From an uncultured Candidatus Saccharibacteria bacterium (GTDB taxonomy: Bacteria > Patescibacteriota > Minisyncoccia > Phycocordibacterales > SBAW01): a DNA stretch of 64,000 nt. The stretch lies in the NCBI GenBank assembly GCA_964650645.1, contig CAZYUH010000001.1:283032-347031 (forward strand). The letters are read 5' to 3'. Below the pieces are notes generated by a model. The model was not told the DNA's origin, did no database searches, and was given only the letters and a program-made list of their open reading frames with translations. How positions within the stretch are numbered: position 1 is the stretch's first letter; each line of letters opens with the position of its first letter. Positions 26,309 to 30,214 of the stretch are shown one piece after another. The position numbers and the translations under genes were made by a program.

Positions 26309-26731
26309 ATGGCCAAGAAAATAGTTAAAAAGATAAAGATTATCGCGCAGGGGGGCGCCGCCGCCATGACTCCGGCCATGGGCCAGGTGCTGGGTCCGGC
26401 CGGCATCAACATCGGCGAGTTCATCAAGCGCTTCAATGACGCGTCCAAAGAGATGCGCGGCGACTTGGTGCCGGCCGTCATCTCAGTCTATGAGGACCGC
26501 AGCTACGACTTCGTGCTGAAGACCCCTCCGGTCTCCTCGCTCATACTCAAGGCGCTCGGCAAGGAGAAGGGGAGCGGCAAGCCCAACACCCAGAAAATCG
26601 GCGCCCTTTCCAAGGCTCAGGTGCAGGAAATAGCCGAGAGGAAGATGCCCGACCTCAGCGCCCATGACATGGACCAGGCGGTGAAGACCGTCGCCGGGTC
26701 CGCCAGGTCTATGGGGGTTGAAGTGAAGTAG
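26309..26731 (+). CDS. rplK: 50S ribosomal protein L11
   Basis: MAKKIVKKIKIIAQGGAA...PPVSSLILKALG matches the L11 signature. Confidence 0.9.
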   Translation: MAKKIVKKIKIIAQGGAAAMTPAMGQVLGPAGINIGEFIKRFNDASKEMRGDLVPAVISVYEDRSYDFVLKTPPVSSLILKALGKEKGSGKPNTQKIGALSKAQVQEIAERKMPDLSAHDMDQAVKTVAGSARSMGVEVK

Positions 26732-26765
26732 AGGTTTCGCTGAGGCAAGGCAGGTTTGGAAAATT

Positions 26766-26805
26766 AAAAAGCGCCCGCGAGTTTCCGCTCGCGGGCGCTT
26801 TTTTG
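26766..26805 (+). terminator. Rho-independent terminator after rplK; it ends the secE-nusG-rplK unit and no rplA follows
   Basis: AAAAAGCGCCCGCGAGTTTCCGCTCGCGGGCGCTTTTTTG. Confidence 0.8.
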
Positions 26806-26885
26806 CCGCTTTTACTCGCCAACTTCCTTTTTGTTCGTATGTGTGGCATTATGTTTTCGGATACCGCACACCACAGGAGATTGTA

Positions 26886-27557
26886 ATGCAAAGAGGCAAA
26901 TTGCTCGCTTTCGAAGGACCCGGCGTCTCTGATAAGGATGGCCGAATCGAGCGCATACGGGAGAAATCCCCCGTCAAGTGCTTCCTTGTCCGGGATCCGT
27001 GGGGCGACAGCTTCGCTGAACTCGTTCAAGAGCTTCCTGCGTGGATGCGCGCGAACCCGTCGCGCGAGCCGGCCTGGGATTCCTTCCCCTTTTTCAAGGC
27101 CCGCGCGGAGTACGTGAAGAGCGTCATCGAGCCCAGGCTTGAAGAGGGTGTTAGCGTGTTCGCGAGCCCCTATGCGGCGTCAGCGTACGCTTCCCTGATA
27201 GCGGGGGACGGGCGGAGGGAGCTTGGATCGGCATTCGTTTCGATATGCGCTTCGCTTCCGCGCGCGCTGAAGCCCGATGCGTACATTGTCTTGAATATGC
27301 CGCCCGGGACCATGCATTCCCGCATGAAGCTGTGCGCTGAAGACGCGCTTGCGAGAGGGGAGGAGCTCGAGGTCAGGCCGCACAAGTACTACGAGGGCGT
27401 CAGGGACGGGCTTCTTAGGTTTGGAAGGCATGCCCGCGAGACCGAGAAATCCCAGCTTGTCGTCATCAGCGCTGAAAAGGACCCACTGTACATCGAAGAG
27501 AACCTGCGGCATTGGATAGGGGACGTGCTGGGGGTGGAGCAGGCGGCGACCGCGTAA
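26886..27557 (+). CDS. Thymidylate-kinase-like paralog with a degenerate P-loop (GPGVSDKDG instead of GxxGxGKT)
   Basis: It aligns to Tmk blocks (LLAFEG..., VRDPWGD versus TREPGGT, and a DAYIVLNMPPG lid region). A strong AGGAG SD lies 8 nt upstream of the ATG at 26886. Confidence 0.5.
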   Translation: MQRGKLLAFEGPGVSDKDGRIERIREKSPVKCFLVRDPWGDSFAELVQELPAWMRANPSREPAWDSFPFFKARAEYVKSVIEPRLEEGVSVFASPYAASAYASLIAGDGRRELGSAFVSICASLPRALKPDAYIVLNMPPGTMHSRMKLCAEDALARGEELEVRPHKYYEGVRDGLLRFGRHARETEKSQLVVISAEKDPLYIEENLRHWIGDVLGVEQAATA

Positions 27558-27598
27558 AAAAACGGCCCGTCCGGATACTTCCGGACGGGCCTTTGTTG
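27556..27598. terminator. Bidirectional terminator between the tmk-like gene (+) and thyX (-)
   Basis: AAAAAAACGGCCCGTCCGGATACTTCCGGACGGGCCTTTGTTG. Confidence 0.75.
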
Positions 27599-27608
27599 CC
27601 GCCGTTCC

Positions 27609-28982
27609 TCAGGCGCTTGCCGCCGGACGCTCGACGATGTCCTGCTCGCCCCGCTCGTAATAGAAGCGGTCGCCCTCGGTTTCCATGTAGAGATGGAGGC
27701 CGAGATCGCCGAACTCCTCAAGCATGAGCGCGCCGGTCTGCTGCGCGACGCGACGCATGGTTGCGTGGACGTCCAGCCTGGCGCGCCGCTCGACGAAGTA
27801 CGTCATCGCCGGCAGATCGCCGACTTTCTGGCATGGCACGAGCAAGCCCATGGGGCAATAGTACTGCCGCATGAAATCGTCCGAGAACATGTTTTTTACA
27901 TACCCCATCTGCTGGGCGAGGAACGGGCCTGTCTCGTCCCTGTACCTGTCCGGCAGCTGGCTTAGGTACCATGGCGAGAAGCCGTGGCCCGTCGTAAGGA
28001 GCGGCATGCGCTGAGCGACGGACCTGTGCCGCTGGTCGTCGCGGAACGACCCGAAGTCCAGCGCGTAATTGAACCGCATCGTCCCGCATTCGGCCAGGAA
28101 CTTTGGCAGCTCAGTCTGCTTCGGGCGCTTTGCGAGCAGGTCCCGGTGAGCGGCAAGCATGTCCTTGTCGAACCCCGAGAACGCGCCCGCTACGTCCGGG
28201 GAACCGGATTCCGGAGCGGTGTAGTAATAGGACTCCCTCATCCAGTAGTCGAGATAATCCTCGGTATCCCGGTAGCGCTTCTTTTGGAAGGAGCTCGGAT
28301 ACTTCTCATTCAGCGCGTCCTCGAGCGTCTCGGCGACAATGCGCACTTCCGCGAGCGGATGGTGGCGAAGTCTGTCGAGATGGTCGCTGATGTGCCGCAG
28401 TTCGCCGTGCCATGCGAGATTGGTCGACGCCCCCGCGGGGAGGAAGCCGCGCATGATATCGAAGGAGCGCGCCTTTATGGCCTTCTCGTATATGTCTTCC
28501 TTCTCACCCTCTCGCCGCGGGTGCCGCTGCACGAGCGCGTTCTGGACGACGCCAAGCCCCTGGAGGTAGCGCTGCCGCCATCGCTCGAGGAGCCATTTCG
28601 AGCTTTCCGAGCCCTGGGGATCGATGAAGGGCTGCGTCGCGAAGTCTATGTAGCGGGTCGAGGCCTCCTGCCCGTTATAGAGCATGAAGTCCTGTATCGC
28701 CTTGGCCGCGAGCATCGAAACGCCTTCGATAAAGAGCGTAGTCGAGCCGCAGTCGCCTATGGACTTGTGCCCGTAGCCGACATAGAACCGCGACATGAAC
28801 ATCTCGGGCCCGGATTTCCAGAGCTTCTCGAGATGCGCGCGCAAACCGCCGACCGAGCGCGAATGCAGGGCTTGGAGCATGGCCTCTGCTTCGGCGCCGA
28901 TAACCGCTCCGGTATTGAGCACGAATACTTCGCCGCTGCCGGGAAGGGGTCTTGCTGTGTGAATGAGGTCCTTAACCTGCAT
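27609..28982 (-). CDS. thyX: Flavin-dependent thymidylate synthase ThyX, tandem-domain (pseudo-dimeric) form
   Basis: The N-half carries GHKSIGDCGSTTLFIEGVS...EASTRY and LRxxxxxLAEVR ThyX-like blocks but no RHR motif. The C-half carries FRDDQRHRS, where RHR is present, and LDVHATMRRVAQ. The 457-aa length is about twice a single ThyX. Confidence 0.55.
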   Translation of the reverse strand: MQVKDLIHTARPLPGSGEVFVLNTGAVIGAEAEAMLQALHSRSVGGLRAHLEKLWKSGPEMFMSRFYVGYGHKSIGDCGSTTLFIEGVSMLAAKAIQDFMLYNGQEASTRYIDFATQPFIDPQGSESSKWLLERWRQRYLQGLGVVQNALVQRHPRREGEKEDIYEKAIKARSFDIMRGFLPAGASTNLAWHGELRHISDHLDRLRHHPLAEVRIVAETLEDALNEKYPSSFQKKRYRDTEDYLDYWMRESYYYTAPESGSPDVAGAFSGFDKDMLAAHRDLLAKRPKQTELPKFLAECGTMRFNYALDFGSFRDDQRHRSVAQRMPLLTTGHGFSPWYLSQLPDRYRDETGPFLAQQMGYVKNMFSDDFMRQYYCPMGLLVPCQKVGDLPAMTYFVERRARLDVHATMRRVAQQTGALMLEEFGDLGLHLYMETEGDRFYYERGEQDIVERPAASA

Positions 28983-29111
28983 CGTCCGTCCTTTCTGTAT
29001 GGTGAGCGTCCTCGTGCACGCTACCCTGCGGGGGAGGGCCGGTCAACTTCCTTTTTGCCCCGCACCGTGCCATCATGCCGGACGGGTACAGGCAACAGAT
29101 CGGAGCGAGTC

Positions 29112-29735
29112 ATGCCAAGAGGCAGGTTCATAGCGTTCGAGGGCGGGGAAGGGTCGGGCAAGGACTGCAACATAAGCCGGCTCATGGAGAAATATACCGG
29201 CCGCGACGATATCGTATTTACCCGCGAGCCGGGCGGAACGGAGGCGGGGGAAAGGCTCCGGTCTTTCCTGCTTACTCCCAGGGAGCGTGGGATAGATGTC
29301 GCTCGCGAACTCGTCGTATTCGTTGCCGCGCGCGCCATACTGATTGAAGAGGTGATCATTCCAGCCCTCGATGCGGGAAAGGCGGTGTTCAGCAACCGAT
29401 TCCATCTCTCTACGCTGGCGTATCAGATCCATGCCCGGCAAAGGCTCAACTACCTGCCGCTCCTTGAGGAAATGAGCAGGCTGGTGGTGCAAGACGTCGT
29501 TCCTTACTATATCCTGCTCGACGTAAAGCCGGAGGTCGGCTTGGCGCGGGTGCGGTCTCGCGGCGAGGAACTGACCAGCATCGACGCGGAAGACATCGCG
29601 TTCCATGCGCGCGTCAGGCAGGGATATCTCACGCACGTAAAGGAATTCCAGCATTGCGTCATAGACGCCGGCCAGCCGCCTGAAACGGTGTGGAGCGAAG
29701 TCGAGGCGGAAGTCGACCGGCTTTTCGCCGCATAG
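29112..29735 (+). CDS. tmk: Thymidylate kinase
   Basis: The P-loop IAFEGGEGSGK, TREPGGT and lid motifs. Only the 3' 207 aa of the 583-aa ORF in the track are real. Confidence 0.8.
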   Translation: MPRGRFIAFEGGEGSGKDCNISRLMEKYTGRDDIVFTREPGGTEAGERLRSFLLTPRERGIDVARELVVFVAARAILIEEVIIPALDAGKAVFSNRFHLSTLAYQIHARQRLNYLPLLEEMSRLVVQDVVPYYILLDVKPEVGLARVRSRGEELTSIDAEDIAFHARVRQGYLTHVKEFQHCVIDAGQPPETVWSEVEAEVDRLFAA

Positions 29736-29857: not shown

Positions 29858-30214
29858 ATGGATATCGGGCTTTCGCCTTCACCTTTCGCTGAAGACAAGC
29901 GGCCCTTGGGAGAGGTGTTCTCCCACAAGGATCCGGCGCCGGAGAGGGAGCTGCCGCCGGCATTCGACAGCGCTTGCAGGAAGTGCGGTACCGGCATGGA
30001 GCGGGTGGATCCCGTGTACTGCACGCGCCGCAAGCCGTACGCGACCTTCCAGTGCGCGAACGGCGCCTGCATGGAGCGCCTGCTCATATTCGACGCGCCG
30101 CGTGCGCCGTTCATCATACGGTCCGTTAACTTCCGCCAATGGACGAATTTCTCGGACCAGATCGATGCGGCAATAGAGCAGCGAGAAATCCAGCACGCTG
30201 CCCGCACCGCCTAG
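29858..30214 (+). CDS. Small zinc-ribbon protein (CxxC...CxxC), hypothetical
   Basis: The sequence CRKCGTGM...CANGAC, preceded by the SD-like AAAAGAGAGG. The gene sits between two copies of a terminator-plus-promoter cassette. Confidence 0.4.
   Translation: MDIGLSPSPFAEDKRPLGEVFSHKDPAPERELPPAFDSACRKCGTGMERVDPVYCTRRKPYATFQCANGACMERLLIFDAPRAPFIIRSVNFRQWTNFSDQIDAAIEQREIQHAARTA

Follow-up and report, generated by a model that had tools for sequence, protein, structure and literature searches.

What does a thymidylate kinase (Tmk) paralog with a degenerate P-loop do beside thyX, when a bona fide tmk lies only 1.5 kb away? This is the question raised by the locus analysed here. All coordinates are positions within the window, the whole stretch of 64,000 nt that was analysed, and the product of the gene at 26886-27557 on the forward strand is named TmkL. 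A sequence-only reading of this DNA had given the reading frame, the residues of the LLAFEG strand and of VRDPWGD, and the two neighbours, and on all these points it proved accurate. The coding sequence starts with ATG at 26886, ends with TAA at 27557 and encodes a protein of 223 aa with a thymidylate-kinase fold and degenerate catalytic motifs. The sequence of residues 6-19 is LLAFEGPGVSDKDG, and VRDPWGD occupies residues 35-41.

The gene order in the window is nusG, rplK, TmkL, thyX, tmk, an ORF of 118 aa, dCTP deaminase, dut and glyA. TmkL and thyX are convergent, and tmk has the same orientation as TmkL. The thyX gene (27609-28982, reverse strand) encodes a long ThyX of 457 aa, which scores 41.3 bits against PF02511 (cut-off 24.8) and has 3,828 relatives labelled in their source names as ThyX of Patescibacteria. 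From these names, among them Kaiserbacteria and Paceibacterota, the organism probably belongs to the Patescibacteria. The bona fide tmk (29112-29735, forward strand) encodes 207 aa with the P-loop GGEGSGKD and an NRF motif; with 120.4 bits for PF02223 and 123 bits for TIGR00041 its product lies above both curated cut-offs (27 and 83.25, respectively). A protein identical to TmkL is encoded by 17 contigs, one of which is an NCBI contig of 754,089 bp, and one source, JGI/IMG, labels it 'thymidylate kinase'.

Homology and catalytic motifs of TmkL

The relationship of TmkL to Tmk, and the degenerate P-loop GPGVSDKDG, were both confirmed. TmkL matches PF02223 with an E-value of 9.4e-5 and TIGR00041 with an E-value of 1.1e-8; the respective scores of 22.6 and 35 bits fall short of the gathering score (27) and of the cut-off (83.25). 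The best solved relative is the Tmk of P. aeruginosa 4e5u (E 5.9e-10), and the neighbouring Tmk aligns over 208 columns with 28% identity (E 4e-12). An AlphaFold2 model, which was built from an alignment of 11 sequences, reached a pLDDT of 85.0 and a pTM of 0.81. The order of strands and helices in this model is that of Tmk, and the Tmk fold, a five-stranded P-loop kinase core with LID, is thus predicted to be present. All of the best 50 matches of the model in the Foldseek search of the PDB were thymidylate kinases (TM-scores 0.58-0.76).

We also considered whether TmkL belongs to another P-loop kinase family with a non-canonical Walker A, or to a different kinase or defence family. None fits. 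Pfam and NCBIfam give Tmk alone, the PHROGs match only as 'thymidylate kinase', PADLOC returned no match for TmkL, and the Foldseek matches agree.

The motifs were compared with those of the P. aeruginosa enzyme (G13-P-E-G-A-G18-K19-S20-T21) and of 18 canonical Tmks. The degenerate Walker A, as located by the alignments, covers residues 11-19 (26916-26942, forward strand) with the sequence G11-P-G-V-S-D16-K17-D18-G19. Of the P. aeruginosa motif it still has the first Gly, the Pro and the Lys. Asp16 stands in place of the Gly that precedes the Lys, and Gly in place of the Thr which follows GK[DG] in the canonical Tmks of the lineage. TmkL therefore does not satisfy the Walker A pattern GxxxxGK[ST], which in the lineage takes the form G.DGSGK[DG]T and in the closest canonical relatives G[LI]DGSGK[DG]T. 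The canonical Tmk of the lineage has itself already moved away from GK[ST], to GKD or GKG followed by T. Within the TmkL family the loop is GPGVSDKDG in the window, APYGSDRDA in P0271, GPDGSDKDA in P0272 and GPGGSGIDT in P0122. The damage is thus of two kinds, a Gly to Asp replacement in three lineages and a Lys to Ile replacement in P0122. That the lesions are of two types and lie in separate branches suggests that selection has ceased to act on ATP binding.

The second lesion concerns the catalytic [DN]R[YF] motif, whose Arg in Tmk clamps and bridges the donor and acceptor phosphates. In the alignment [DN]R[YFG] is found in 18 of 18 canonical sequences, and the Arg is absent in all four lineages of the TmkL family. 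The window protein has SPY at residues 94-96 (27165-27173, forward strand), as have P0271 and P0272, S94, P95 and Y96 being invariant among the three, and P0122 has SGY. Furthermore, EPGGT is changed to DPWGD in the window protein and to PWG[DS]S in the family, and the Gln of the AFQ segment is missing in clade A, which comprises the window protein, P0271 and P0272.

Several residues of the active site are nevertheless kept. TmkL retains the acidic E10 at the end of strand 1, Lys17 (Arg in P0271) and, among the dTMP-binding residues, R36 (the Arg of REPGG) together with F69/F70 and R73 (the stacking Phe and the Arg of FxxARA). For R36 and R73 at the NMP site this applies to the window protein; P0271 and P0272 have H-N and H-S in place of R-E, the counterpart of R73 is His in P0272, and 13 residues of the NMP-binding helix are missing from P0122. 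In the LID, which we compared with KRARAR153 of E. coli on a presumed mapping to R153, R146 and K148 are kept, and position 150 is occupied by Cys in the window protein and by Arg in P0271, P0272 and the strain variants P0283 and P0288. The R-x-K-x-R of the LID appears to be largely kept in the family. The Arg of the downstream xRF[DE] is lost, though it is not universal in canonical Tmks either. The kept Lys17, E10, R36, R73 and LID basic residues leave room for a residual or altered activity.

Two further stretches deserve attention. The sequence S-D-[KR]-D in the damaged P-loop is conserved throughout the three lineages of clade A and could, as a conserved motif, be a new functional site rather than a product of decay. 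The helices of the NMP pocket (ELPAW.R.NP.R.P..D.FPFFK) are remodelled and yet form the most conserved stretch of clade A.

Family, genetic setting and selection

TmkL is a very narrowly distributed variant of the well-known Tmk family. A HMMER scan of 1.84 billion representatives recovered its family as three clusters at 50% identity, which are nearer to TmkL than ordinary Tmks are (P0001 with 99%, P0122 with 42% and P0123 with 49% identity). The next matches of that scan are about 400 ordinary Tmks with at most 30% identity. A profile search of a set of 5.8 billion proteins added the intact full-length proteins P0271 (225 aa) and P0272 (224 aa) with 52-56% identity, and a word-indexed protein search with the single TmkL sequence found only the 99% twin. 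No further members were found in two scans of genome contigs and in two of metagenome contigs, the latter with protein patterns and with a 30-base promoter pattern. With clade A and P0122 there are four divergent lineages only, and the conservation statistics of TmkL are therefore weak.

Frameshifts in orthologs would have pointed to a pseudogene, and the sequences were inspected for them. The frame of the window gene is intact, as are those of three divergent orthologs. GPGVSDKDG is invariant in all nine strain variants which cover it, and the full-length variants are intact (8 of 8); two shorter entries are cut off early and contain no frameshift. Frameshifted records are limited to two, P0123 from locus L008, which breaks at a C7 run, and P0290, which breaks at a G5 run. 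The contig of L008 has a coverage of about 2x, and intact near-identical siblings of the frameshifted records exist. Because the homopolymers differ, one of the contigs is covered only about 2x and intact siblings are at hand, both frameshifts look like assembly errors, and the pseudogene reading was not borne out.

The rplK gene belongs to a secE-nusG-rplK unit 5' of TmkL and is followed by an intrinsic terminator (26766-26803, forward strand) with a 17-bp stem and a T-run (-31.2 kcal/mol, z -7.2), by which TmkL is isolated from that unit. At the other end a bidirectional terminator, GGCCCGTCCGGA-N4-TCCGGACGGGCC at 27564-27591 (-28.7 kcal/mol, z = -6.6), is common to TmkL and the convergent thyX. 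This hairpin, GGCCCGYCCGGA, accompanies the TmkL gene from locus to locus. It is also present 3' of TmkL in L009, L012 and L013, with an extra copy on the 5' side in L009 and L013, and it was not found in the TmkL-free loci L003-L007. The hairpin is specific for the TmkL family. A REP-like genome-wide repeat as its source was rejected, since it occurs as a single copy in the window.

Upstream of the coding sequence lies a promoter/leader element, CTTCCTTTTT..TGGCATTAT..CGGATACCGCACACCACAGGAGA (26823-26880, forward strand), which ends in the GGAG ribosome-binding site 7 nt 5' of the ATG. In an alignment of five TmkL loci the approximately 60 nt from CTTCCTTTTT to GGAG contain 47 invariant columns. 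The element is homologous to the one 5' of the canonical tmk and can be aligned with the tmk upstream regions of the window, L012, L005, L003 and L007. Exact matches of CTTCCTTTTT in the window are found only at 26823 and at 29047, where the tmk promoter/leader element begins (29047-29111, forward strand); on the basis of this exact match and of the upstream alignments the tmk element is taken to be the parent of that of TmkL. A strict sigma-70 consensus was not found in the TmkL upstream element, and TGgCATTAT may represent an extended -10. A riboswitch or other structure in the leader RNA was tried as an explanation and rejected, because the leader, with only about 30 nt, is folded no more stably than shuffled sequences (z +1.06). 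Judged from the common promoter element, TmkL is probably co-regulated with tmk. The sequence-only reading had described TmkL as an independent, expressed unit. Its independence is backed by the ribosome-binding site, the conserved promoter-like element and the terminators, while expression can only be deduced from these signals.

The setting of the gene differs between relatives. TmkL and the long ThyX converge in the window, in its strain variants and in L012, and in these the canonical Tmk lies beyond ThyX. In L013 and L009 it is convergent with a DHFR gene, and the cluster of L013 also encodes dCMP deaminase, ThyA and dUTPase. TmkL is thus always located among genes of dTMP synthesis, either by ThyX or by DHFR/ThyA. 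Promoter, coding sequence and hairpin are found together in both settings, which means that the unit occurs in two thymidylate contexts. The convergent layout with thyX or DHFR is by itself weak evidence of a functional link. Co-occurrence with the long ThyX, which had been suggested as a check, is not general: more than 3,800 ThyX relatives stand against a handful of TmkL proteins, and two members lie beside DHFR/ThyA. Relatives with a ThyX 71-82% identical to that of the window have no TmkL and contain an AAA_28/CYTH gene in the slot. TmkL as a remnant of this slot gene was rejected, as tblastn found no trace of it in the window; the same search rejected remnants of the 198-aa and 101-aa neighbours present in L012 and L013.

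Selection on TmkL was estimated as dN/dS according to Nei-Gojobori with 1,000 bootstrap replicates. The values are 0.40 for the pair window-L012, 0.36 for window-L013 and 0.34 for L012-L013; the upper 95% bounds do not exceed 0.57 and none of the 1,000 replicates reached 1. All indels in the DNA alignment of the three lineages are multiples of 3, the differences are distributed over codon positions 1/2/3 as 30/29/39%, and the GC3 of 0.74 is as in the neighbouring genes. For the pair window-L012 the dN/dS of other genes is lower, with 0.16 for Tmk, 0.115 for ThyX and 0.09 for L11. The dN of TmkL is 0.335 compared to 0.126 for Tmk, a 2.7-fold difference which indicates a relaxed constraint. The identity kept is 53-56% for TmkL, 80% for Tmk and 87% for ThyX. 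These substitution patterns are those of a gene under relaxed purifying selection and not of a pseudogene.

Origin and possible role

In the neighbour-joining (NJ) tree, which with 210 columns and long branches is not decisive, clade A has 100% bootstrap and joins a canonical clade of Patescibacteria Tmks, P0273-P0277, with a support of 84.5%. One member of the latter, P0274, is the Tmk adjoining ThyX in the relative L005. TmkL is 38% identical to this P0274-type Tmk at the syntenic position and 25-28% identical to the Tmk of its own genome, and the Tmks of the window and of L012 are placed on a separate long branch. P0122 groups inside the canonical clade (90% bootstrap). Its genomic position is that of P0272, and it has derived residues in common with clade A, namely P140, G158, E160/E162 and the Ser of S-x-Y. 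It may be a slow-evolving member, may have been inactivated independently or through gene conversion, or may be a true pseudogene. The tmk-like element upstream of TmkL points to a copy made from tmk together with its promoter/leader.

The explanation which we favour, and regard as probable though far from settled, is that TmkL is a pseudokinase, a paralog which descends from tmk, no longer catalyses and is kept under relaxed purifying selection for a binding role in dTMP metabolism. This reading draws on the two catalytic elements lost in all members, the branch-specific lesions of Walker A, the constrained but fast evolution and the retained promoter element. A native-type, P0274-like tmk of Patescibacteria would have been duplicated together with its promoter/leader, and the duplicate would then have lost the residues for phosphoryl transfer and been retained as a non-catalytic protein under relaxed purifying selection. 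TmkL would be transcribed together with tmk, would no longer transfer phosphate and would act by binding. Tmk enzymes are homodimers. Conceivable partners would be Tmk itself in a heterodimer, ThyX or DHFR by direct contact, or a pyrimidine nucleotide in the NMP pocket, and the remodelled but conserved pocket of helix 2 and helix 3 is a candidate nucleotide-binding place. Two features expected of a pseudoenzyme are found in TmkL, namely a clear relationship to an active enzyme whose catalytic residues it has lost, and purifying selection; the lack of catalysis and a non-catalytic function are predicted.

The sequence-only reading had left the choice between a pseudo-kinase or regulatory paralog and a kinase of altered specificity. 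The former is favoured, since the Arg of DR[YF] is lost in all members and Walker A is broken in two ways. We consider an active kinase with a non-canonical P-loop, which would use for instance a modified pyrimidine nucleotide or another phosphate donor, to be improbable. The kept Lys17 (or Arg), E10 and LID basic residues would suit it, as would the remodelled NMP-pocket helices which are best conserved in clade A, the persistence of S-D-[KR]-D in three lineages, and the fact that the canonical Tmk of the lineage itself manages with GKD or GKG before its Thr. However, the Arg of DR[YF] is Pro or Gly in every member, the Asp before the P-loop Lys places a negative charge at the site of the beta-phosphate, P0122 has neither the Lys nor the NMP helix, the searches gave no match to a known kinase family with a P-loop of this kind, and the dN of TmkL is 2.7-fold that of Tmk. 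Even less probable in our view is a functionless redundant duplicate on the way to its loss, whose frame has stayed open by chance in a GC-rich genome. The GC content of the window is indeed 62.7% and many long spurious ORFs are present, TmkL evolves fast (53-56% identity, compared to 80% for Tmk and 87% for ThyX), two records are frameshifted, P0122 has a deletion of 13 residues and close relatives do not contain the gene. Chance is hard to reconcile with a dN/dS of 0.34-0.40 and no bootstrap replicate at 1, with indels in multiples of 3 among the three lineages, or with third codon positions which differ most and a GC3 raised as in real genes. Moreover, conservation across lineages extends to the promoter element, the ribosome-binding site and the terminator, the frameshifts fall in two different runs, C7 and G5, with intact siblings and one contig at about 2x, and TmkL is kept in a streamlined genome of 754 kb.

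A different history is conceivable, although we regard it as doubtful: TmkL may be the displaced native Tmk, kept although it had lost its former task, and the working Tmk of the window a newcomer or a fast-diverging copy, in which case Tmk types would often be swapped at this locus in these bacteria. The 38% identity of TmkL to the P0274-type Tmk of L005 against 25-28% to its own Tmk fits well with that view, and so does the separate long branch of the window and L012 Tmks. In addition, three types of Tmk are found in one slot among genomes whose ThyX proteins are 71-82% identical. On the other hand, the tmk of the window has the promoter element of the lineage and its place by thyX, which favours descent in situ, and the tree is weak for the reasons given above. 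This scenario concerns the history of the gene only and is compatible with the pseudokinase reading.

The pseudokinase reading can be carried further, in a form which is speculative and which we think rather unlikely to hold as a whole. TmkL could be the first regulatory pseudokinase derived from an NMP kinase in bacteria, co-transcribed with tmk from the duplicated promoter, which would tune the dTTP supply in the ultra-small genome of a Patescibacterium via a heterodimer with Tmk, docking to ThyX/DHFR or sensing of a pyrimidine nucleotide; the S-D-[KR]-D loop would then be a built-in phosphate mimic.

A dead-looking paralog which is selected in a dTMP cluster would imply that thymidylate metabolism has a step of control or assembly which has gone unrecognised, and the Patescibacteria with their streamlined genomes depend on a tight nucleotide economy. 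TmkL would add a case derived from an NMP kinase to the bacterial pseudoenzymes. For annotation, the label 'thymidylate kinase' on TmkL would over-count Tmk activity and conceal which copy is the working one and which the degenerate one. With so narrow a family and a function that is putative only, the wider impact is modest.

Comparison with known systems

The searchable literature yielded no pseudoenzyme derived from Tmk, no bacterial one derived from an NMP kinase, and no Tmk paralogs in these bacteria. Compared to the bacterial Tmks (PF02223/TIGR00041, for instance 4EDH from P. aeruginosa and 4TMK from E. coli), TmkL is alike in fold, in the full-length order of the domain and in length class (Foldseek E 2e-10, TM 0.6-0.75), and it keeps the acidic end of strand 1, the P-loop Lys, R146 and K148 of the LID and the C-terminal helix. 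It differs from them by its scores below the cut-offs, Asp instead of Gly before the Lys, Gly instead of Thr at position +2, Pro instead of the Arg of DR[YF], DPWGD, the missing Gln of AFQ and an insertion of 2 residues in helix 2.

The closest canonical relatives are the native-type Tmks of Patescibacteria, P0273-P0277, with 32-40% identity. Like TmkL, they have a long insert in the LID (ARAEEALxQ..) and the segment ARETGSQ, and the promoter element lies upstream of their genes as well. In contrast to TmkL they keep G.DGSGKDT, [TS][ND]RY, EPGGT and FFLFWASRA, and their source annotation is dTMP kinase.

A precedent from outside the family is the delta-prime subunit of DNA polymerase III (HolB), an inactive P-loop paralog which is often encoded beside tmk. 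Pseudoenzymes of the HolB type resemble TmkL in being conserved paralogs of an active P-loop protein which have lost nucleotide-handling motifs. They work by binding, and by analogy TmkL may do the same.

The hairpin and the TmkL unit

A hairpin with a 12-bp stem, GGCCCGYCCGGA-N3/4-TCCGGRCGGGCC, accompanies the gene of TmkL, the degenerate Tmk paralog. In two of the related loci that contain TmkL, L009 (363-389 and 1122-1148) and L013 (1141-1168 and 1952-1963), the hairpin flanks the TmkL unit at both ends, while in the window (27564-27591) and in a further locus, L012, it is located downstream of the gene. None of the TmkL-free loci fetched contains it. This distribution suggests that promoter, TmkL and hairpin moved together as one cassette. 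Directly upstream of TmkL both L012 (533-1129) and L013 (99-695) encode on the minus strand a 198-aa protein with a Cys-rich C-terminus, which precedes TmkL despite the differing downstream context of these loci. This protein is assigned to no Pfam family and is not encoded in the window.

Two records of TmkL orthologs, one from locus L008 (at about 846-850) and P0290, are frameshifted at separate homopolymers, C7 and G5, and have the out-of-frame tail RGAGSRVV in common. The coverage of the L008 contig is about 2x. These frameshifts are probably sequencing errors; real alleles, either phase-variable or decaying, are a conceivable alternative.

Tmk types and the promoter/leader element

Three markedly unlike Tmk types share one position adjoining ThyX in the window, L012 and the TmkL-free loci L003, L005 and L007. 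The identity among the three types is 30-35%, and the Tmk proteins of L003 and L007 are 50% identical, whereas ThyX is 71-87% identical in the genomes carrying these differing types. Either the Tmk beside ThyX evolves unusually fast or its coding sequence was repeatedly replaced in situ. The P-loop of the window Tmk (29112-29735) reads GKDC and not GK[DG]T.

The promoter/leader element is present in the window in two copies (26823-26880 and 29047-29111) and upstream of tmk in L003, L005, L007 and L012, with the layout GGTCAACTTCCTTTTTG..GTGCCACCATGC..CGGATA..ACAACA..GGAG. It is kept ahead of tmk even though the Tmk proteins of these genomes share just 30-50% identity; at tmk the regulatory DNA is more conserved than the coding sequence among the genomes compared. 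The element could be the binding site of a putative regulator of the divergent thyX-tmk pair.

Between tmk and the dCTP deaminase gene a 118-aa ORF (29858-30214, plus strand) bears a zinc ribbon-like CxxC...C-x4-C pattern and has no Pfam match. It is 100% identical in L010, where it is called as a gene; L012 keeps the region, with 54% identity when read in antisense.

The long ThyX and the rplK-thyX slot

ThyX of the window (27609-28982, minus strand) comprises 457 aa, twice the usual length, and its Pfam match is confined to residues 66-229. The N-terminal half contains the S-x-R-Y motif (residue 108) and DFM where RHR normally sits; the single RHR is found in the C-terminal half at residue 318. 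Such a layout would fit a fused pseudo-dimer whose two half-sites complement each other. The two halves show no similarity to one another by BLAST, and no sequence relatives were found in the PDB at E <= 0.01. The long form is frequent among Patescibacteria (3,828 hits).

In L003 (7485-8582), L005 (7500-8585) and L007 (6477-7562) the slot between rplK and thyX is filled by a gene on the thyX strand, encoding a 361-365-aa protein in which an AAA_28 P-loop domain is fused to a CYTH-like domain (E 2.4e-4 for the latter, narrowly below the cut-off). By tblastn this gene is absent from the 64-kb window. The usual gene order is secE-nusG-rplK-rplA. That order is disrupted in the window and in all related loci fetched, and at the window junction downstream of rplK (26731-26886) a terminator is followed by the dTMP cluster in place of rplA.
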